Positions 7,065 through 55,214 of a DNA stretch of 64,000 nucleotides are shown in pieces. The DNA is from a virus (lineage: Duplodnaviria; Caudoviricetes): positions 7,354-71,353 of the IMG/VR virus record IMGVR_UViG_3300032214_000855; one strand, written 5' to 3'. The first letter of the stretch is position 1. The number at the start of each line of letters is the position of its first letter. The translations under genes were made by a program, and so were the position numbers. Below the pieces are notes generated by a model that was not told the origin of the DNA, searched no databases, and worked only from the letters and a program-made list of their open reading frames with translations.

Positions 7065-10000
7065 TTAGGCTAGGGCAAGAACTCTTAGATTTTTAATTCT
7101 AGGAACATGAACTTGATTGGTAGATGTTCCTATTAATTTTATTCTAAAATAACGGAATGAAGGTAGATTATTTGCTGTAAATGTATGTTCTCTAAAATCA
7201 ACATCATTAAATCCAAGCACTGTTGATGGTGCAATATAGTCATCAGGAAGTCCGTCACTATTTTCAAAATTTATAACTTCTTTATATTTGTTCAAATTCA
7301 AATATCCTGGGAAAGGTATGAATATTGGAGAAAAATTCGGATTATCACTAATTGCATAAAAAGCACGAACATTTGAATCTGGAGTCAAGTGTGCATCTAA
7401 TATAATTTTTATTGATGATGATGAAGTCTCCAGTTGAACCTCTTTAGAAACATATTTAAATGAAGTTGGGTCATCAATTGCACTATTTACTCTACTATCG
7501 GTAGAGTAATCGGTTATAATATTATTAACTCTATTTGTGACCAGAGTGATAGATGATGCTCTAGCATCGATTGTAGGACTCAGTAAACTATTATTTGATG
7601 ATAGATCAATTCTTAAATTGAAAGATTTCTCATTAAGTAAGTTCTCAACTTCATTTATATCAGAACAGATAAGTCTTGGTGAATTTAAATTGTTGTTTTC
7701 GTATATTGAGATAGGTTCAAAACCTACATCTAAGAATGAGGATTCATTTCCACTTATACTTGTTCCCTGTATTGTCTTAATAGATCCACTTATTGATGTT
7801 CCATTTACTGTAGTATTTGGAATAATTGGTTCAATTAATTCAAATTGTATATTATTAGATGCCGAAATATCTGACCCCCCAGTAGATTTAGTTTCATTGA
7901 TATAGAGTTTTGGTAAAGATGTTTCTACAGATCTATCAATTCCATCCGAAGACATATCAAGTTTAATGTGATATGAATCTAATGTTATTGGTTCATTGAT
8001 AATTGAGGTATCCACCGTGGATAATTCATGTTGCTTATTAATTCTTCTTAATGATACTCCTCCCAATTCATACTTATATACGGGTGTTCCAATATCATAA
8101 TCCTTTTCGGGTGCTGTCACTATTCCATTAATTTGTCCATTGGAAACTGATTCGTAAGGTATTATTTCATTTCCAATTAAAAGATACCCAGGATTTGTTG
8201 AAGCAACACCAACATTTTCAAAAGTTTGGAACACACTAGAACTGTCTACATATATGGAATCACCTGAAGATATAGAACTAGCAGTAATTTTTTGCGATAA
8301 TTTTGTTGGCACAATATCACTCTCAACTCCAGAGATAATTAAATGATTCTGTGATGAATGCATTCCATGATTTTTTTGATTAACCTTTATATGCAATCCA
8401 TCCGAAACTGTAATCAAATTGCTAACTGCTATATTTAAGTTTACAGTTGAACCAACATTATTTTTATACTGTAATGACGGTGATCCAGAAACAATGAAAT
8501 CACCTTGAACATTATCAAGTATTATTTCATTTATTCTTGATATACTAGAAATAGAAACTCTTGCTCCATATCCGACATTTAGAGATCCTATGGAGGAAAT
8601 TCCTAGCACATCTCCAATTTTATAACCAACTCCTCCATTTACAATTGTTGCTATACCAACTTCACCATTAACTATTGTTACATTAGCAGTTGCATTTCTT
8701 CCATCTCCAGAAATAGATTCTAAATTGACATTATTGAAAATAAATGATCCAGATGATGGAGTGTATCCTATTCCAGGATTAATTAAAGTTAATTGCCCAA
8801 AAGCAGATCCAGCACTGCCAACATAATTTCCAGTTCCTTTTGAATTTGACTGTAAAACAGTGTTTCCTATTACCAATCCAGAATTACTGGGCAATGAGGA
8901 TGCTAAACCAACTCTAACCTTTCTAGAATTGAGTATAACTGAATCTGGAGATAATTTTTTAGAATACTTTAGAGTTTGGTTTGTAAGTTTTGGATTATAG
9001 AAATTAACAAATCCAGATCTAACAAAATTTGCACACCAGAGTTGATACTTCAAATCTTCCCATTGGCTAGGTTCCCACGTAGTTCCATTTTGTGATTTGA
9101 AAAGTGATCCAAAATCTTCTTGATTTGATACAAAAGAATTTGTAATTAAATCATTTTCATTAACTCTTGAAATAAATACCGAATAATCTGGTGATTGTGA
9201 CAATAGGCAAACGGCATAGTCTTTGTTTCCTTCCAAATAAATTGGACGTTTGAATACAAATTCTGTACCTAAAGATCCATCACTTGAAATGGTTATTTCT
9301 GATGGTAATTTGGAAACTTGAGAACCATCTAAAATATAATCTGATGGGTTTGGTCCCCCAGACACTGTTCCATTTGTTATAGGTCTGATTTCCAGATCTA
9401 CAGTAAGACCATCAGTTGAAGGAACTGAATTGAAGTAAATAACACATTTGGTTAAAAATACTCCTTTTGCTCCAACTGAGAATGATTGTGCTAGTGGATC
9501 TCGCGCACAAATTTTTGCGCCTTCTTGTCTAAGTGCTCTTACTAATTGATTACCGGATTGTTCTGTTAAATTTCCACCGGCTGTCCTTTGAATATCAATT
9601 CCAAGTTGTCTTGCTGTTTCGGATATATTTCTAGGTAGTCCTACACTAGCCGCTGCATCACCTAACCTTTCTCTAGCAGCCTGAGCATAAACAGGGCCGT
9701 CATAATTAATCTGGACGGTTGGTGCAGGTGCAGCAGGTGTTGGTGGGGGTGGTGCAGGTGCAGCAGGTGCAGGTGTAGGTGCAGGTGTTGAGGGAGGCGA
9801 ATAAGTGTAAACTGGAGGTGGGGGTGGAGGTGGAGTGTTATCTACCCTAGTATTAGATACCGTTTCTTGAGTTACATCAGTACCCAATATTCTTTCTTGG
9901 GACGATCCAGTTTCTAATATTTCCTTTGATGCTAATTTATAAGATCTTGTTGAAATTGTAGTTGGTTGAACTGTTTCAACAAAACCACTAGCAGTAAAGT

Positions 10001-47553: not shown

Positions 47554-47917
47554 TGATTTCAGAAGTTTCAGTGTTTGCTTGAGTCTTTACACGAACATTG
47601 TAAGGGCTATTGAAGAACCTGCGGAAAGCAGTGCTAACAATAATAAACGCCGAAATAACACCAACAAAACCAAGGAGGGTTGTAGCATCACCTGTAAAAT
47701 TGTACGTGTCGGGAGTCATAAATTAAAAATGAAAATTGGAATAAAACTAAAAATCAGTACTCGTAATTACTTTTTAGAAAGGAGTTGAAAATCCTATCGT
47801 CATCATCCTCTTCAAAGAAATTATCGAAAGATGCTTCTGTAAAATCAAATCCAGAGATTTCTTCAATCTGAAAATCATCGAAGTCGTCCATTTGACCTTT
47901 TCCAACCGAACTTAAGT

Positions 47918-47976
47918 ATCATACCCCAGATTGGGCGGCGCGGCAAGGGGAGTGTGCCAGTTCCTCAACCGTCCAT
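47918..47976 (-). promoter_or_regulatory. palindrome-box promoter
   Basis: TATGAT -10, TTGCCG -35, TGTGCCAG-N8-CCGTCCAT at 47953-76. Confidence 0.7.
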
Positions 47977-48168
47977 CAGTTCTCTTTTAAGTTCTTGTTT
48001 AAGTTGTTCTCTCTCTTGTTTTTTTCTCATTTGAGATTGACGTGCTTGTGCTTGTGCCTTTGCTCTTTCTTTGAAACGCTGCATCTGGTCTAATTGTCTT
48101 TGTCGCAGTTGTTTTTTTCTTTGCTCCAGTCTATTTACATCTTCATTAAATTGAGTAAAGGTTTTCAT
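47965..48168 (-). CDS. putative internal head protein, CTS-like N-terminus, coiled-coil
   Basis: MKTFTQFNED..; late promoter ATAAATA at 48187-93. Confidence 0.6.
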   Translation of the reverse strand: MKTFTQFNEDVNRLEQRKKQLRQRQLDQMQRFKERAKAQAQARQSQMRKKQEREQLKQELKRELMDG

Positions 48169-48213
48169 TGTTAAACACTTTTTGATTATTTATTTTGTAA
48201 AAGTGTTTTGCAT

Positions 48214-48239
48214 AAAAAAAGGTGCCTCGGGAGCACCTT
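48214..48239 (-). terminator. rho-independent terminator
   Basis: Minus strand AAGGTGC-TCCCGAG-GCACC followed by T7, after ORF 48260-48937. Confidence 0.75.
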
Positions 48240-48259
48240 GGGACAGTTTGGGAAGTGGT

Positions 48260-48937
48260 TTAAGAAGGTCTTAAATGTTCTCCAGTTCCGTGCCCAACTG
48301 CATCTTTACCATAATATTGTATTCTCAATCTTCTATCTTTTCTTTCTTTTGCTTTTTGTTTTGTTTTCTCAACATTCTTTGGAGATTTTTTCATATTCTC
48401 TTCAACAATACTCTCTCTCCACTCTTCACTCATATTTGATGCAATGACTTCTGCACCTTTAAGATTATTTGTATATCCTTCATTTACAAGATGATAGAGA
48501 ATGAAATCAAACTCTTCTTTATTGAGTGCTGCTGCTCTTTTTCTTGCTTTATTACCTCTACCTTGTTCGGGAGCACTTCCTGCAGTATGTGTAGCACCAT
48601 ACTTACTATAACCAGCTTTCAAATAGCGATTATGTGCTTCTCTTGATTTATCAGCAACTTTTTTGGTATATATGGAACCACCATATTTCTCTTCATCTCT
48701 TTCTGCTCTTGCACGACTACGATTGAGAATTTGTCTCTTTGCAGAAGTATCAGATTTTTCTGGTCCAACATTATATCTTTGACGTAGAACTTCACCTCTA
48801 CTCATTGGTTTTGGTGCTTCTGCTTCTTTCTTTTTTCTACCAAGAAATCTCTTCAATGAAGAACGGATACCTTCATCAATAGTATGAACTTCTTGGTACG
48901 ATTGAATGTCTCTAGAATCCATTTGTTTTTTAAGCAC
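48260..48937 (-). CDS. basic late protein with LVNEGY..MSEEW module
   Basis: Perfect TATAAATA at 48946-53; K/R-rich; FILYHLVNEGYTNNLKGAEVIASNMSEEWRESIVEE; likely start MDSRDIQ at 48922. Confidence 0.65.
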   Translation of the reverse strand: MLKKQMDSRDIQSYQEVHTIDEGIRSSLKRFLGRKKKEAEAPKPMSRGEVLRQRYNVGPEKSDTSAKRQILNRSRARAERDEEKYGGSIYTKKVADKSREAHNRYLKAGYSKYGATHTAGSAPEQGRGNKARKRAAALNKEEFDFILYHLVNEGYTNNLKGAEVIASNMSEEWRESIVEENMKKSPKNVEKTKQKAKERKDRRLRIQYYGKDAVGHGTGEHLRPS

Positions 48938-48954
48938 TATGAGAATATTTATAT

Positions 48955-49197
48955 TTACTCATATTCAAATGGTTTATTCATATGCCTTGGATATTCAATA
49001 CTGCACTTAATATCTTTAGTTTCTGCTGGGATTATATGAGTTCTTACTGCATTAAAGACAATAAAACAGTTAGTGATGAAGATAGAAAGAAACATAAGAG
49101 TGCGGATAATTGCTACTTTATCCGCCTCTTTGTTGCATTCACTTGCCTTTTCCCCTAAAGAAAGTGCCCAGAGTTTCCAGAGATTACTCCTCTTCAT
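48955..49197 (-). CDS. hypothetical membrane protein
   Basis: WALSLGEKA..DKVAIIRTLMFLSIFITNCFIV. Confidence 0.65.
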   Translation of the reverse strand: MKRSNLWKLWALSLGEKASECNKEADKVAIIRTLMFLSIFITNCFIVFNAVRTHIIPAETKDIKCSIEYPRHMNKPFEYE

Positions 49198-49429
49198 AGA
49201 TTGATTTGCGAGACTTAACGTAGTTTAATTCACCCCATTGATTTTGATAACAAATTACAAGTAATCTGTTATTTGCGTGAAATGGAGCATCTAAAAGATT
49301 TATATTATCTTTAGGTTTAACTCTAGTCTCAATAGTAAGATATTCAGTATCTTTATAGTAAATCCACCCTTTGATATGGGGTTTCCAAATCACATAGTCG
49401 TTGATTTCTGGATTGTATTGATAATTCAT
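49184..49429 (-). CDS. hypothetical protein
   Basis: 81 aa. Confidence 0.65.
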   Translation of the reverse strand: MNYQYNPEINDYVIWKPHIKGWIYYKDTEYLTIETRVKPKDNINLLDAPFHANNRLLVICYQNQWGELNYVKSRKSIYEEE

Positions 49430-49436
49430 TATTGGT

Positions 49437-50243
49437 TTAATGTGGTTTTATTCTACCAAGAACCCAGTTATTACCTGGACATTCTACGCTTCTTTTGTTT
49501 ATTTGTCCATCATTCCACCATTTTGTATTTTTATGTAGAGGAGGCAAGTGTCCCTTTTCTTTTAATGATTTACTAATTCTTTTTTTATGTTCTATATTAA
49601 GAATTTTTCCTTTGCGTGATGGTGGTTTGTGCCCTATATCCTTAAGTGCTTTACTTACCTTTTTCTTATGGTCTTCACTGCATTTTTTACCCTTATTATG
49701 GGCAGGTTTCCCTTTCATTGCTCTACTAATGTTTATTTTATGTTCTTCTTTTAATTTTATTCCAAGTTTTTTTTCGCTCATTTTTCTTTTGGCGTCTTCA
49801 CTCATTATTTTTCCTTTTTTTGCCTTTCGCATTTTTAGTATAGTTTCCTCACCATGCACTCTACCTTTTAGTGAAGATCCAATTTTTCTTTTTGTTTCTT
49901 TGCTAAGTTTTTTGCCTCTATGCGATTCACTTAATTTTCTTTTAGTTTCCAAACTTTTGATAGAACCACTAGACCCCTCACCACCATCAGTCCTATTTCT
50001 TAATATACCAGTTCCTAAATCTTTTCTACCAAATACCGAAATCATATAAATTTCATGTTTAAATGATTCCTCTTCGGTAAGATTTCGTTTTAGAAAGATT
50101 ATTCTGGATTTGTTTTTTGGAGGTTTTACTTCTCCTTTACCTTTTTTACACGCTCTATTTCCTTCCCCTTTACCTATGTAATAGGGTGTTTTATCCTCAC
50201 GCAAATATGCATAGGTATAAAATCTATATGGACTTTTAACCAT
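49437..50243 (-). mobile_element. free-standing GIY-YIG homing endonuclease with NUMOD3-like repeats
   Basis: FYTYAYLREDKTPYYIGKG, LRNRTDGGEG, repeated SxETKRKLSESHRG/HNKGKKCSEDHK units, terminal KWWNDG..GNNWVLGRI. Confidence 0.85.
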
Positions 50244-50253
50244 AGTTCTGCTC

Positions 50254-50348
50254 TTAAATTGACTAGCAATAATATTTATATTACAAAAGAGAGGATTTCT
50301 CCTCTCCCACCCTTAAAGATGCTAGTCAATTAAGGCATCATTATTTAT
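50254..50348 (-). promoter_or_regulatory. dual late-promoter / inverted-repeat leader of the endonuclease
   Basis: Late promoters at 50342-48 and 50273-80; complementary elements 50320-33 and 50254-68; hairpin plus T4 at 50285-50306. Confidence 0.65.
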
Positions 50349-50517
50349 CATACTTCATATTCCTTTTCAACACACAAAAGAGAAATTAGTGTTTTGAGTT
50401 TTGCAATTTCTTCTTCTTGGTCTTTGATTTTATCTTGAAGACGACTGATTTGTGCTTGATATTGAGTTTTCAAATCAAAGATCATTTTGTTTGTGTGTGC
50501 AACGTGATGTGTCATAA

Positions 50518-50757
50518 TCAGGTGGTAAAGGATTCAACAACAGTGGATTCTACATCTTCGGCAAGAGCATAAGTTCTTGCATTAACTACTTTTTCCCGAA
50601 GATTTACATAAAACTCTTCATTGAATCCCTCATCATAATCTTTAATCAAATCAAAACATTCATCGTCATCTTCTGCAATCACGTTCCAAACTCCTCCATA
50701 TTCTGAACGTGGAAAAGTTACGAAGTGATCTACGATATAAAGAAATTTTTGTGTCAT
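50518..50757 (-). CDS. hypothetical protein
   Basis: 79 aa; FPRSEYGGVWNVIAEDDDECFDLI. Confidence 0.7.
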   Translation of the reverse strand: MTQKFLYIVDHFVTFPRSEYGGVWNVIAEDDDECFDLIKDYDEGFNEEFYVNLREKVVNARTYALAEDVESTVVESFTT

Positions 50758-50781
50758 TAACCTCGTTTGCTTAACAAAAAT

Positions 50782-50810
50782 AGTATAAAGTTTCTCTGAT
50801 AAAAAGTCAA
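50782..50810 (-). promoter_or_regulatory. sigma70-type promoter TTGACT-N17-TATACT
   Basis: agtcaa 50805-10 and agtata 50782-87 on + strand. Confidence 0.7.
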
Positions 50811-50967
50811 TTGATTTTATCAGAGGGTTTTTTCTTTAGATTCTCTACTGATGTAGAATGATAATAAGAATCATAAAGTTGTTCATCTCGTTGAATTAGA
50901 AAGACATTCCACCCAAGAATAAATGCAAATACAGTCAATCCAGAGATGACATACTTACGATTTCGGT

Positions 50968-51375
50968 TCATTTGTTCATCTGAAGTGTAGGAACAGGCAT
51001 ACCACCCTCAGTGGGAACATAAATGGTCACATTACCATTCTTGCTACCATCTTCAATGCCAGTGATATACAGATACTGAAGATACTCACGATTATCTTTC
51101 AGTGAATTACCAATGATTTGGTTTGCTTTGGCAACACCTTGAGCACGGATGATTTCAGCATCAGCAAGTTGTTGTGCAGAATCTTTCTTTGCTTGTGCTT
51201 CCAGAACTGCTACCTGACGAGTATATTCTGCTTTCTGCAGTTCTGCTTTACCAGCAAGAGATTGTTGCCATACGTTGTATTGGGGACCACCAATAAAGAT
51301 GAGACCACCAACTACAGTAATGGCAATGGCAAACAGAGCAACACCAGGGTCAATAAATCCGTTTTGATTTTTCAT
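50968..51375 (-). CDS. membrane protein with SPFH/band-7-like coiled-coil tail
   Basis: N-terminal TM, then AELQKAE..EAQAKKDSA..AEIIRAQGVAKANQIIGNSL..YLQYLYI..IYVPTEGGMP. Confidence 0.6.
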   Translation of the reverse strand: MKNQNGFIDPGVALFAIAITVVGGLIFIGGPQYNVWQQSLAGKAELQKAEYTRQVAVLEAQAKKDSAQQLADAEIIRAQGVAKANQIIGNSLKDNREYLQYLYITGIEDGSKNGNVTIYVPTEGGMPVPTLQMNK

Positions 51376-51563
51376 TTAGAAGATACTCCAGTATTTTTGA
51401 AAATAAGATTAGCAAGAAAGATCATAGCAAAAGTTTGCCAGATCGTAAGATTAACACCAAACCAAGATAGGATCAAACCAAGCAACCACGCTTCAAAAAG
51501 AAGTCCAGCAACAACGAGGACAATTACACCAAAAGTAACACCAATAGCAGTAGTAGTTTTCAT
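51372..51563 (-). CDS. small two-TM membrane protein
   Basis: 63 aa, almost entirely hydrophobic. Confidence 0.7.
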   Translation of the reverse strand: MKTTTAIGVTFGVIVLVVAGLLFEAWLLGLILSWFGVNLTIWQTFAMIFLANLIFKNTGVSSK

Positions 51564-51875
51564 AATTAATTTTCAAAGTTGTGATAGAGTTTTTCTTCAA
51601 GTTTTTTCAACCGATTTTCATATTCTTTATTCGGTTGATGTAAAGCATAGTTAAACAGGAGAGCAGTTACCAATCCTCCAAGATACCATAAAATAAACGT
51701 CATACGGGAAGTTCTGCAAGAGACTTTCCCCTCTTATGATCGTTTATATATTTTTTTGCAGATGCTTCAGTTCTGCATAATTTTTCAAGTTGTTGTCCAT
51801 TATGGATAATAATATATCCCTTTGTACCAAAAGGGACGGCAGCATAAGAACCATCCCCCACAATAAATCCTTCCA

Positions 51876-52094
51876 TTAAATACTCTGCAATGTTCCTTCC
51901 TTTTTCATTTGAGAAATAAACTTACCCACACTCTCAACAGTTTTGATGTGAAGACGAACATAGTCTAGGTCTTCGCAACCAAAAATATAAAAGTGATCTG
52001 GTTTATAAGTATATGCTACACCAACTTGACTTTGCTCATCATCAAACTGAATCTTTGCAATAGCAGAAGAATCAGTGAACTCAAGGACTTCCAT
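51876..52094 (-). CDS. KTSC-like domain protein
   Basis: DSSAIAKIQFDDEQSQVGVAY..YIF..ESVGKFI. Confidence 0.55.
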   Translation of the reverse strand: MEVLEFTDSSAIAKIQFDDEQSQVGVAYTYKPDHFYIFGCEDLDYVRLHIKTVESVGKFISQMKKEGTLQSI

Positions 52095-52117
52095 TGTTCT
52101 CTTTCGATTACCTAGTA

Positions 52118-52176
52118 ATCATAGCACGGGATCGGTGCCCTGGGTGAGGTCAGTGGTCAGTTCGCCAACTGGTTCT
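52118..52176 (-). promoter_or_regulatory. palindrome-box promoter
   Basis: TGC-TATGAT -10 plus GTGGTCAG-N8-CTGGTTCT at 52153-76. Confidence 0.65.
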
Positions 52177-52332
52177 TCAGTGTATTTAAGTGGTCTTCAC
52201 TGCATATTTTTGCAGTAAATCCTGGATAAAACTTATTTACAAGAGTGCTAATACCCATAGCAGTAATAGCACTCTCGCATCTTAACCAAATTTCTTTTTC
52301 TTGTACTTTTACTATATGATCAAAAGGAAATT

Positions 52333-52491
52333 TCATTCTTTAACTATAAATTTGTACCAAGTTTCACTCATTCCTTCAATAATCTTATCTGCAGATTCTT
52401 TATCCTCTGCATAACCTTCTGAAATTAAATCCTCTACAACACTCTCGTAGATTTTATAAGTTTCCTGCAATTCTCTTGGTGTTGGTTTCAT
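52333..52491 (-). CDS. small protein with LISEGY..MSETW module (52 aa)
   Basis: Manual translation MKPTPRELQETYKIYESVVEDLISEGYAEDKESADKIIEGMSETWYKFIVKE; late promoter at 52510-16. Confidence 0.6.
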   Translation of the reverse strand: MKPTPRELQETYKIYESVVEDLISEGYAEDKESADKIIEGMSETWYKFIVKE

Positions 52492-52511
52492 TTGACTACT
52501 TTTTCTTTTAT

Positions 52512-52712
52512 TTATTTATTTTTTCTATCTCTAGCATACCATTTACACCAACCATCGGGAGAAATTTTACCTTTCACAGAGGTGCAAGCATTTGGTTCTC
52601 TCCACATATTGCAGTTAGAACACTTTTCACTTCCTTTTGGTTCATTTTGATATTTTGCAACTGCTTTAGATGCTTTCTCTTCTTCAAAGAGAAACTCTTG
52701 AAAGGTTTTCAC
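52512..52712 (-). CDS. HiPIP-type [4Fe-4S] protein with CTS-like N-terminus
   Basis: MKTFQEFLFEEE + KASKAVAKYQNEPKGSEKCSNCNMW..ACTSVKGKISPDGWCKWY (C31-x2-C34-x8-C43-x12-C56). Confidence 0.75.
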   Translation of the reverse strand: MKTFQEFLFEEEKASKAVAKYQNEPKGSEKCSNCNMWREPNACTSVKGKISPDGWCKWYARDRKNK

Positions 52713-52715
52713 TTA

Positions 52716-53333
52716 TCAATCCTCGTCGTCTTCGTCGTTATGTACTGGATGAAATTTCTTTCCAATTTTTGTCGAATACTGCTTACCCCAACTATCTACT
52801 TTTCCAAACCCAGACTTCTTATAAATTGATGCTCTTGTATTTTTATCGGGGTTTCTTCTATTATCACTTGAGTTCTCTTCTGGTTCATTAGATACCAGAT
52901 GCCCACTAGGAATTCTATGTTGGACGTGCTTATCCCAAACCCTCTTTGCGTTCCTTGCAGTTCTTAACTTTTCACCTGGACTCATCTTATCTTGGTCATT
53001 AGACTTACTATGTTCCCACCTAACATTATGTTCGGGTTTGTGTCCGTGTGCGGTTCTTGCTTTCCCACCTAATTTGGCATCATACATATGTTCGTATTCA
53101 TCATCAGAACTATGCCTTTTAGAATGACCAACAGTATAAGTAACTCCAGAAGGTTTATGATGAATAGTCGTAGATCCTCTTCTGTCAGTATTTTGGTCTT
53201 TTCCTCTTGGTCGGTCATACTTAACTTCTAGGTCAGGATGCTTTGACCTATCAAATCCGTGCGAGTCATCATACTGCTTTTTCTTTTCTAGAAGAAAATA
53301 TGCTTCTTCTAGAAATTTTTGAAAAGATTTCAT
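52716..53333 (-). CDS. putative internal head protein (CTS-like), weak GNAT-like C-terminus
   Basis: MKSFQKFLEEAYFLLE..; C-terminal NTRASIYKKSGFG. Confidence 0.6.
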   Translation of the reverse strand: MKSFQKFLEEAYFLLEKKKQYDDSHGFDRSKHPDLEVKYDRPRGKDQNTDRRGSTTIHHKPSGVTYTVGHSKRHSSDDEYEHMYDAKLGGKARTAHGHKPEHNVRWEHSKSNDQDKMSPGEKLRTARNAKRVWDKHVQHRIPSGHLVSNEPEENSSDNRRNPDKNTRASIYKKSGFGKVDSWGKQYSTKIGKKFHPVHNDEDDED

Positions 53334-53791
53334 CTTTGTCCGCCACCAGTTGAACGTGCTTTTTGTGCTCTTCTCAATGCAACCCTTTGTGCTGGTGATG
53401 GACCGGCACTAAATGGTCTTACTCTTTCTCCTTCTGGAGTTTTCTCCATTTTTTGCTTTTCTAGTTTTCCAACACCTCTCAATCTTCCAGGTGCTGCTGC
53501 TCCAGAACCTCCACCACCTTGTGCGTGTCTAGCAGCACCGGGCATTCTAGTAGCATATGGTTGTGTTTCTCTATCAATCATCCCCTGCTTCATTCTACCA
53601 GTTGATGCTCTAAGTGATAGAGATTTTCTTGTTGATTTCTTAACTTCCGAACGACCAGTTTCAGGGTTCTTCACAACTCTACCTGAAGTTGTGGTTACGT
53701 GGAGAGGAGTTTTCGTTTCTCCTTTAACTTTATCCTCTTTACGCATCTCAACGAGGTATGCTTCTTCTAGGAACTCTCTAAAGGTTTTCAT
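53330..53791 (-). CDS. putative internal head protein (CTS-like), R/K/G-rich
   Basis: MKTFREFLEEAYLVE..; late promoter at 53812-18. Confidence 0.6.
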   Translation of the reverse strand: MKTFREFLEEAYLVEMRKEDKVKGETKTPLHVTTTSGRVVKNPETGRSEVKKSTRKSLSLRASTGRMKQGMIDRETQPYATRMPGAARHAQGGGGSGAAAPGRLRGVGKLEKQKMEKTPEGERVRPFSAGPSPAQRVALRRAQKARSTGGGQR

Positions 53792-53810
53792 TTACTTACA
53801 GGGTTTTCTT

Positions 53811-54929
53811 TTATTTATTTATTCCCTTTTCTTTTCTCAATCTTCTCCTCTGTGCCGCAGCAAGTAAATCTTTGTGAGAAATTGAACCGGAATATAACTC
53901 CTTTGTTTTTCCTTCTAGTTCGTGTGCTCCACCTGCTCTATGTCTAATTCCTCTCTTACTGTGCTTTTCTGGTGTTTTATCAGTTGTTGCACCCATTAGA
54001 TTTTTTGGATGGTGTCCGTGATAGATTCCACTCGCAGCATCTTTTTTCTTTTTTGCTTCCCATTCAGCATCACTCATAGATGACTTAATCTTTGCAGAAT
54101 AATGTGTTGGAGTAATATGATGTGCGTCAAGACCTGCCTTATGAAGTTTTCTCTTCTTGGCGTCTGCTGCTGACCTTTCTGAATGAGAACTTAAACTTGC
54201 AATTCTTTCTGCTCTTGCTTTTTTCTCTTGAGCACCACCAGACTTTGGTTTTAGTCTCCATTTTGGATTTTCTGTGCTACCAGCATTGTTTGCATACATT
54301 CCTGCTGGAATTCCTTTGTGGTGCTTTTCTAATTCAGCACGACTTGAAAATGTTGGTTGTTTTGCTTCAATTAAATGTGCTTCTTCTAAGAACTTTTTGA
54401 AAGTCTTCATTTTTGAAGACTGAATATCTTCTTTATTGAAGATTTTACTTACTGCTCTAACTGGTCTTTCAAATGCTTGACGAACTGCTGGAGTTGGTCC
54501 AGTTTTTATCATTCTGGGACTAAATGCTTTATGTGGTCTCCATCCCTTTACACCAGTTTCACCCTTCTTAAAAGATGTGTCAGTCCTAGTAAGTTGCTTT
54601 CTATCATCATCCATCAATTCTTTCCAGGATGCTTTGTTCTCATTAGGAACTCTTTCATTTCTTCCTTTGTTCCACCATTTTTTTAGACGTTTGGATTCGG
54701 AAAAATTTTTCTTTTTACGATTACGTGCTGGTTCTGATACTCTTGCACTATCTAAATTTCTATTTGCTTCCTTTCTCTTTCTCATCAGTTCTCCCATTAA
54801 AGGGAGACTTGGTGCTGCAGTTTTACCCGAAGTTACTAATGACTCCGGAGATTGTGTAGCATTAGCAGCAAATGAAAGTGCCAAAACTGCATTTGCTGCT
54901 GCGTCTCTTTTTCTACCTTCAGAAAGCAT
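53811..54929 (-). CDS. basic late protein with internal CTS-like motif and HNH-like C-terminus
   Basis: Late promoter 54953-59; internal MKTFKKFLEEAHLIE at 54410; DAHHITP..HGHHPKNLM..RH..AH. Confidence 0.6.
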   Translation of the reverse strand: MLSEGRKRDAAANAVLALSFAANATQSPESLVTSGKTAAPSLPLMGELMRKRKEANRNLDSARVSEPARNRKKKNFSESKRLKKWWNKGRNERVPNENKASWKELMDDDRKQLTRTDTSFKKGETGVKGWRPHKAFSPRMIKTGPTPAVRQAFERPVRAVSKIFNKEDIQSSKMKTFKKFLEEAHLIEAKQPTFSSRAELEKHHKGIPAGMYANNAGSTENPKWRLKPKSGGAQEKKARAERIASLSSHSERSAADAKKRKLHKAGLDAHHITPTHYSAKIKSSMSDAEWEAKKKKDAASGIYHGHHPKNLMGATTDKTPEKHSKRGIRHRAGGAHELEGKTKELYSGSISHKDLLAAAQRRRLRKEKGINK

Positions 54930-55214
54930 TTATCTACAAAAATACCTTCTGTTATTTATCACCCTCCCCTTTCTCTCAGACTGCGGACAAGATATTCAGT
55001 AAATGCTTCCATTTTTTCTGGGGATACTGATTGTGGAAGTTGATTGATTGCATTTTTAAGCGCAGTCATTTCATTAAACTCATCTTCAGTAAGAGTTTGA
55101 TTTTTAGATGGAAGGGTCATACTATTTTGCTCCCGTGTTTATGTTCAAATCCTAACATTATTTAAGGTAGTTGGGAGATTCCTTAATATTGTCTTTAGAG
55201 TATAGTTACAAAAC

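Follow-up and report, generated by a model that had tools for sequence, protein, structure and literature searches.

A decapeptide resembling the T4 capsid-targeting sequence on unrelated proteins of marine T4-like phages

The DNA considered here is a stretch of 64,000 nucleotides (the window) from a virus of the Caudoviricetes, corresponding to positions 7,354 to 71,353 of the 71,353-base virus contig G000 (IMG/VR record IMGVR_UViG_3300032214_000855); coordinates are those of the window unless stated otherwise. Several reading frames in it begin, or begin anew, with nearly the same ten residues, MK[TS]FxxF[LIM]xE. This decapeptide (the tag) appears to be the cyanophage form of the capsid-targeting sequence (CTS) of bacteriophage T4, with packaging, cleavage and ejection as proposed below, an interpretation to which a probability of about 0.76 is assigned. 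Well over 60 unrelated protein families are headed by the tag in marine T4-like phages, where it probably labels proteins destined for the virion, from which they would be delivered together with the DNA. What has been observed directly is the motif itself, how widely it occurs, that it goes with T4-like genomes, and that enzymes bearing it are found in virions of two isolates.

The window carries genes for T4-type gp6, gp8, gp13, gp14 and gp15, and the same contig carries, beyond the window, those for the large terminase (gp17), tail sheath (gp18), tail tube and portal (gp20). Synechococcus and Prochlorococcus myoviruses were the source of all DNA and protein matches. Tags of the form MK[TS]FxxF[LN]x[ED] are present in five minus-strand open reading frames (ORFs) of the window and in a sixth just outside (lengths in amino acids, aa):

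48168-47965, minus: 67-aa tagged ORF, MKTFTQFNED; cargo highly charged, with a coiled-coil-like helix
52712-52512, minus: 66-aa tagged high-potential iron-sulfur protein (HiPIP), KTFQEFLFE after a GTG start
53333-52716, minus: 205-aa tagged ORF, MKSFQKFLEE; His-rich basic cargo, fold unassigned
53791-53330, minus: 153-aa tagged ORF, MKTFREFLEE; cargo basic and Gly/Arg-rich
54929-53811, minus: 372-aa ORF with internal MKTFKKFLEE at residue 174 (54410)
G000 contig 1551-1231 (locus L353), minus, outside the window: sixth tagged gene, 106 aa, MKSFKQFLSE, phrog_1742

A sequence-only reading of this DNA had named five frames with a shared decapeptide, and all five are present on the minus strand where it had placed them; the frame at 52712, which it had read as MKTFQEFLFE, does carry the tag, with GTG instead of ATG as its start. 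A six-frame scan of the 71 kb contig with a very loose motif yielded no start-codon copies beyond these six. The tag is conserved as protein and not as DNA, since synonymous codons vary freely: among the codon pairs for the same residue in different tags, 35 of 83 use different codons, and when the DNA of the tags is compared, identity amounts to 0.85 at second codon positions vs 0.55 at third positions. The sixth gene is flanked by the portal gene and a gene for a virion structural protein, and tagged homologs of it were found with tblastn in the head/neck gene region of 135 cyanophage isolates; those in S-SCSM1 and S-RIM2 begin with MKTFKQFMSE and MKSYKQFMSE, respectively. With the 153-aa and 205-aa proteins as queries, tblastn gave no match in 50,697 records of isolate phages; relatives of both are known only from metagenomes. 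Homologs of the 153-aa protein in IMG/VR loci showed identities of 44-96% (56-74% for full-length matches); those with the start present (L013, L003, L037, L044, L056) are all tagged and all preceded by ATAAATA.

With one IUPAC pattern, three places were found in T4, namely those of IPI (MKTFKEFIKE) and IPII/IPIII (MKTYQEFIAE), and two in P-SSM2; the same pattern also retrieves the tags of the window. In the T4 CTS, targeting is driven mainly by residues 4 and 7 and processing by residues 8 and 10; with Asp at position 10, cleavage is blocked and targeting is kept (PMC9026906). Phe is present at positions 4 and 7 in all six copies of the contig, and both are kept also in families which were defined by their cargo and collected without using the tag, the S-adenosylmethionine (SAM) lyases and the HiPIPs. 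An aliphatic residue 8 together with Glu 10 occurs in five of the six copies, the exception being the 67-aa ORF, where N8 and D10 deviate from the processing consensus. The internal proteins of T-even phages are a diverse set with only the CTS in common (PMC3012670), and the T4 prohead protease cuts after Glu, removing propeptides of 10-20 residues (PMC5694885).

The tag thus resembles the CTS of IPI, IPII and IPIII in being a ten-residue N-terminal peptide of nearly the same sequence (compare MKTFKEFIKE of IPI with MKTFKKFLEE and MKTFREFLEE here), with aromatic residues 4 and 7, an aliphatic residue 8 and Glu 10, and in being attached to unrelated small cargo whose genes, in a T4-like myovirus, occupy a variable locus and follow late-promoter motifs. 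It differs in belonging to Kyanoviridae with other hosts and in a consensus which prefers F4, L8 and E9. In T4 the cargo consists of small basic inhibitors, whereas the wider set of tagged cargo includes whole enzymes, and the window contributes a cofactor protein, the HiPIP. Unlike those of T4, cyanophage tags also occur within frames that have been fused; here both targeting and cleavage are putative.

A scan of IMG/VR with the strict pattern gave at least 119 loci with at least 123 tagged frames and at least 41 unrelated cargo clusters. In a second scan only MKTFKEF was fixed and positions 8-10 were left free; at least 112 frames in at least 63 cargo clusters were obtained. Among the matches listed, strict-pattern tags nearly all formed the beginning of their open frame, and [LIVM]xE with its Glu at positions 10-13 was present in 36 of the 63 clusters vs 3.7 on average when the windows were shifted along the same proteins, i.e., an enrichment of about tenfold. 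The residue which follows [LIVM]xE was Ala or Ser in 20 of these 36 clusters, again among the matches listed, where recognisable cargo comprised adenylate kinase, a Zeta-toxin-like kinase, SAM lyase, ADP-ribosyltransferase and DUF6321. Propeptides of SAM lyases differ in length from phage to phage, yet always end in [LI]xE, with the conserved SSLSR following at once. Five large IMG/VR records contained 3-5 tags each, the control with the reversed pattern giving none; the 247-kb relative G001 has MKTYQEFISE among its tags.

The type of genome was assessed with 15 tagged IMG/VR records, comprising 12 fragments (41-86 kb) and three complete genomes. The fragments were 22-42% complete according to CheckV, which corresponds to genomes of roughly 170-250 kb. 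A protease of the gp21 type (Peptidase_S77) was found in eight of the 15 records, among them all three complete genomes.

Virion proteomes of isolates provided evidence at the protein level. When the genome of the T4-like cyanophage S-CREM2 was scanned with a loose tag motif, six annotated starts fitted, and five of these belong to proteins listed in Table 3 of PMC10665884, the virion list obtained by mass spectrometry of CsCl-purified virions:

S-CREM2 ORF6: SAM hydrolase, MKDFDSFLEE, virion protein
S-CREM2 ORF13: MKDLHSFLTE, virion protein
S-CREM2 ORF14: kinase, (V)KRFDAFLTE, virion protein
S-CREM2 ORF136: MQTFSMFFSE, virion protein
S-CREM2 ORF154: cytidylyltransferase, MKNFSSFLTE, virion protein

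Overall, 52 of 219 ORFs of S-CREM2 are virion proteins according to that table, and a binomial estimate for at least five of six is about 0.004. In S-SCSM1, the NMNAT-like ORF91, which starts with MKSFLQFLKE, is reported as a virion protein (PMC9602691). Cytidylyltransferase homologs in P-SSM2 and S-RIM2 are also headed by the tag. The authors of PMC9602691 remark that such enzymes recur, without explanation, in cyanophage virions, and concede that the NMNAT could have been carried over from the lysate. These NMNAT/cytidylyltransferase, SAM hydrolase and kinase proteins resemble the proteins of the window in having the same tag start, and were found in purified virions by mass spectrometry; the window cargo belongs to other families. 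In their accessible parts, neither of the two papers notes the common N-terminus or offers a mechanism of packaging.

Motifs resembling a late promoter, ATAAATA, are unevenly distributed in the window, with 19 copies on the minus strand vs three on the plus strand. Those near the tagged genes, and one terminator-like structure, are:

48187-48193, minus: ATAAATA, 19 nt upstream of the 67-aa ORF
48219-48239, minus: terminator-like hairpin followed by a T run, separating the 67-aa unit from the upstream gene
52509-52519, minus: ATAAATAAATA motif, which overlaps the stop codon of the HiPIP gene and marks the downstream edge of the exchangeable cassette
53812-53822, minus: ATAAATAAATA late-promoter-like motif with two overlapping ATAAATA copies (53812-18 and 53816-22), upstream of the string of 153-aa, 205-aa and HiPIP genes
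54953-54959, minus: ATAAATA, upstream of the 372-aa ORF

The 67-aa gene, with its hairpin and its ATAAATA, forms a self-contained unit, and the genes for the 153-aa protein, the 205-aa protein and the HiPIP form one string behind a single motif. The suggestion that every unit possesses an ATAAATA of its own therefore holds in part: the three motifs named for it are real, while the 205-aa and HiPIP genes are without their own. Among the matches listed in two IMG/VR samples, 61 of 219 tagged ORFs (28%) had ATAAATA in the 60 nt upstream vs 204 of 2243 control ORFs on the same strand (9%), an odds ratio of 3.9; a match of this kind is a sequence motif and no measure of the timing of expression.

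Taken together, the match to T4, the key residues, the enrichment of [LIVM]xE, the genomes with S77 proteases, the enrichment of promoter motifs and the virion proteomes of isolates support T4-type capsid targeting, as it had been suggested from the letters of the window.

At 52512-54929 the tagged genes make up a hyperplastic island, whose cassettes are swapped between close relatives. On either side the DNA of the relative L047 is 96-97% identical to that of the window. The HiPIP cassette (52517-52727) is absent from L047, which contains instead 1.6 kb of other tagged cargo, consisting of further cargo joined to the 205-aa gene at "...HNDED/LEEAKAPK", a 261-aa gene (MKTFQEFIYE) and a 135-aa gene; the junction just given falls inside a tag. 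In place of the 67-aa gene L047 has a 165-aa version starting with MKNFTQFNED. It is also without the homing endonuclease of the window (49403-50347; ORF 49437-50243, minus), for which Pfam shows four NUMOD3 repeats and PHROGs gives "homing endonuclease", and which looks like a recent mobile insertion. Between the same flanks, the 247-kb G001 possesses a different gene set again.

Fusion of cassettes is seen in the 372-aa ORF, which has two parts:

54411-54929, minus: N-terminal 173 aa, untagged, the first 78 aa conserved
53811-54410, minus: C-terminal 199 aa, beginning with the internal tag, followed by HNH-like cargo

The fusion seen in the 372-aa ORF was found in six relatives (L151, L056, L003, L096, L025 and L044; tag form K-KTFKEFVEE), and in L141 another N-terminal part is joined ahead of the tag. 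In those seven fusions, L025 excepted, the Met of the tag is replaced by Lys or Leu. L061 has the HNH-like cargo alone behind an N-terminal tag. An interpretation of the 372-aa ORF as two genes with a missed stop codon was ruled out, since the frame is open, the fusion recurs in relatives and the Met of the tag is replaced. The first ~27 residues of this ORF (54850-54929, minus), GRKRDAAANAVLALSFAANA followed by TQSP, are conserved and include a hydrophobic stretch; they resemble a signal peptide or a membrane helix, which is odd for a protein whose packing into the head is proposed. As a separate observation, large multi-domain proteins ending in DUF6321 are encoded by S-RIM2 (SWTG_00073), S-BM3 (185) and S-SCSM1 (S-SCSM1_29; loci L235, L238 and L354, respectively); they possess tag-like remnants between domains, e.g., "KKSFKDFTEG" and "EQFLQVSEG", and from their sequences they resemble several cargo modules fused in series. 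One of them, S-SCSM1_29, has a virion-protein annotation.

Among the cargo, the identity of the 66-aa protein as a HiPIP is solid at the level of sequence. It matches Pfam PF01355 with an E-value of 4.1e-5 (24.2 bits vs a cut-off of 22), and its cargo, residues 12-60, amounts to a complete [4Fe-4S] HiPIP domain. A profile of the family with 14 members matches PioC (6xyv) with an E-value of 1e-13, residues 12-60 aligning with 3-51 of 54, and C30, C33, C42 and C55 are invariant in the family alignment. All 13 retrieved homologs keep the tag, one cut copy only its FLSEEEK part. Bacterial HiPIPs reach the periplasm by means of a twin-arginine (Tat) signal. In the 66-aa sequence neither a twin-arginine motif nor a hydrophobic region was found, the N-terminus being the tag. 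The protein thus resembles PioC and the bacterial HiPIPs in aligning across the whole of PioC and in the four cluster cysteines, and differs from them in that the phage tag stands where the Tat signal would be.

For the C-terminal cargo of the 372-aa ORF an HNH-like nature is plausible, if weakly so. The pattern HH...N...H...H is invariant in 10 homologs. The AlphaFold2 model has a pLDDT (predicted local distance difference test) of 76, and its best matches in VIA-align were weak, namely the HNH endonuclease of GVE2 (Z 4.8, root-mean-square deviation 6.7, 79 aligned) and T5 SciA (Z 3.9); no Pfam or PHROG family and no Foldseek match were obtained. The 205-aa ORF gave no family with Pfam, PHROGs, tblastn or the protein atlas, and the 126-aa cargo fused to the 205-aa gene in L047, which has a Q/RxxGxG-like stretch, gave no Pfam match at E ≤ 0.001. 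Of the cargo domains which the sequence-only reading had proposed, the HiPIP is thus confirmed and the HNH-like domain weakly favoured, and the GNAT-like one is not supported, no such cargo having been found in the window.

Two features of the neighbourhood may be added. A gene for 135 aa at 50968-51375 (minus) matches phrog_11227, labelled "protease", with an E-value of 2.7e-52; it is the only part of 47900-55000 which matches isolate DNA closely (S-SZBM1, 84%; S-PM2, 79%). A motif of ~40 aa, L..EGY......A..I...MSE.W, occurs on the minus strand in a 225-aa ORF (48260-48937, phrog_3708) and in a 52-aa ORF (52333-52491), and, according to tblastn, in many tag-bearing loci of other phages.

The following course of events may be envisaged. 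The tagged genes would be transcribed late, from promoters of the ATAAATA type. The N-terminal tag would then bind to the scaffolding core of the prohead by means of its aromatic residues 4 and 7, and the cargo would be enclosed. A protease of the gp21 type would cut after the Glu of [LI]xE (positions 8-10), mostly before Ala or Ser, so that mature cargo would be set free in the head and could leave together with the DNA at infection. In fused cassettes an internal tag, or a remnant of LxE, might allow the protease to part the modules inside the head. Binding to the core, cleavage and ejection are what we infer for tagged proteins in general; for the proteins of the window this applies also to packaging.

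Several points weigh against this interpretation. The contig stops two genes past the portal gene, and the phage's own gp21 and gp22 lie off the contig. The IUPAC pattern which detects the T4 internal proteins finds nothing in S-PM2, Syn9 and P-SSM4, which possess gp21 according to annotation; the tag system is thus not universal in the Kyanoviridae. For the six proteins in question and the close homologs of the 153-aa, 205-aa, 372-aa and HiPIP proteins, presence in virions is a prediction from sequence, and the S-SCSM1 homolog of the sixth gene carries no virion-protein flag. The 67-aa protein would, by the rules of T4, be packed and remain untrimmed. The CTS of T4 was examined only at N-termini, in contrast to the internal tag of the 372-aa ORF, which is without precedent. 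ATAAATA is short and A+T-rich and was nearby in only 28% of the tagged ORFs. In bacterial and archaeal genomes (596 billion bases) the strict pattern was found in 81 places, a scan which had been intended as a negative control and is semi-quantitative, the collection differing in size from the viral one and the viral count being a lower bound. Of these 81 matches, 25 are in Exiguobacterium, one per genome (loci L154-L228), and are perhaps the start of one conserved gene; several others are on short contigs of metagenome bins. Finally, in T4, packaged GFP apparently had to refold after delivery (PMC9026906); if cargo exits in unfolded form, a [4Fe-4S] protein would be stripped of its cluster, and a role for the HiPIP after ejection is hard to picture.

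Part of the evidence could be explained in other ways. The tag might be an amphipathic helix common to these N-termini that serves another purpose, such as docking to a chaperone, a host factor or the membrane, or that of a stability signal, and the presence of tagged proteins in virions would then have another cause. This appears unlikely. It is favoured by the fact that the case for binding and cleavage of the cyanophage tags is one of analogy, by the location of several tagged genes among genes for replication and metabolism (PSSM2_194; S-CREM2 ORF6, 13 and 14), by the lysate carry-over of NMNAT which the authors of the S-SCSM1 study allow for, and by the signal-peptide-like opening of the 372-aa ORF. 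It requires, however, that the near-identity to the T4 CTS and the tenfold enrichment of [LI]xE at the exact T4 processing position are coincidences, and likewise that the tested contigs come only from large T4-like genomes with S77 proteases and that five of the six tag-like starts of S-CREM2 are in the virion list of Table 3.

Even less probable is the view that the 30-base repeat functions chiefly in recombination, as a joint whose microhomology serves to swap and fuse cassettes in the manner of the promoter-stem-loop cassettes of T4-type phages, the peptide being a by-product. Modular shuffling by way of conserved short cassettes has reportedly been described for T4-like phages, and the exchange of the HiPIP cassette for 1.6 kb of tagged cargo in L047, with a junction inside a tag, as well as the recurring fusions jointed at tags, would fit such a role. 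The low DNA identity between tags (0.55 at third positions, with 35 of 83 codon pairs different) speaks against it, as does the use of every synonymous codon across IMG/VR among the matches listed; moreover, specific residues are conserved, and this extends to a propeptide of variable length ending in [LI]xE. Conservation at the level of DNA as the cause of the repeat was ruled out by the codon evidence; a recombination joint is probably a side effect of the tag and unlikely to be the reason for it. The least credible proposal, with hardly any weight, is that an A/U-rich coding start (AUGAAAACNUUUAAAGAAUUU) is kept in order to boost the initiation of translation on late messages without a strong ribosome-binding site. 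The sequence is A/U-rich, and a Shine-Dalgarno sequence is not obvious in front of several tagged genes, but internal copies without a start codon retain the peptide, conservation is highest at second codon positions, synonymous codons containing G or C are common, and the conserved Glu and the spacing of [LI]xE find no explanation at the level of RNA.

If the tag is regarded as a capsid-targeting sequence, two other known systems are of interest for comparison. The ADP-ribosyltransferase Alt of T4 is similarly a head-borne enzyme, which gp21 processes and which enters the host along with the DNA; its propeptide differs from the tag. A tagged ADPrib_exo_Tox protein is present in a complete T4-like IMG/VR genome (L066 in G003), whereas the window is without an ADP-ribosyltransferase. 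Alt is processed at both ends (PMC9026906). In the case of the ejection proteins of phiKZ and SPN3US, N-terminal propeptides target proteins to the interior of the head and are removed after Glu by a related prohead protease; unlike the tag, these propeptides are mostly longer than 100 residues (79 to ~130), are cut at AxE or SxE and have no decapeptide in common with it (PMC5694885).

No paper was found which links a capsid-targeting sequence, or a HiPIP, to cyanophages, or which ties the CTS to virion-associated enzymes of cyanophages (the search did not extend to the subscription literature, and an earlier mention is possible); searches of the literature for literal tag strings gave unrelated matches only. 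That diverse internal proteins of T-even phages share the CTS is known already; unusual here is the breadth of the cargo, and the fusion architecture may turn out to be a variant.

A broader view is put forward tentatively, at somewhat less than even odds. The tag could be a label, readable in the sequence, for the complete protein load that T4-like phages of the sea package and inject, with dozens of enzyme families, among them SAM lyase, ADP-ribosyltransferase, nucleotide kinases, NMNAT and HiPIP; internal tags could be joints cut by the protease, so that one N-terminal tag would load a whole string of modules, and tags could at the same time be the joints at which cassettes are exchanged.

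Should the capsid-targeting interpretation be true, a mechanism would become available for the non-structural enzymes which cyanophage studies repeatedly detect in purified virions without accounting for their presence, such as NMNAT/cytidylyltransferase, SAM hydrolase and kinases (PMC9602691, PMC10665884). The classic mechanism of T4 would be extended to a distant family, and the natural variants of the tag listed here could be used in studies of packaging. The proteins which uncultured marine T4-like phages deliver at infection would be predictable from sequence alone. A large and fast-changing set of proteins, which likely act in counter-defence and host takeover during the first minute, would thereby be opened to testing in viruses which control Synechococcus and Prochlorococcus.

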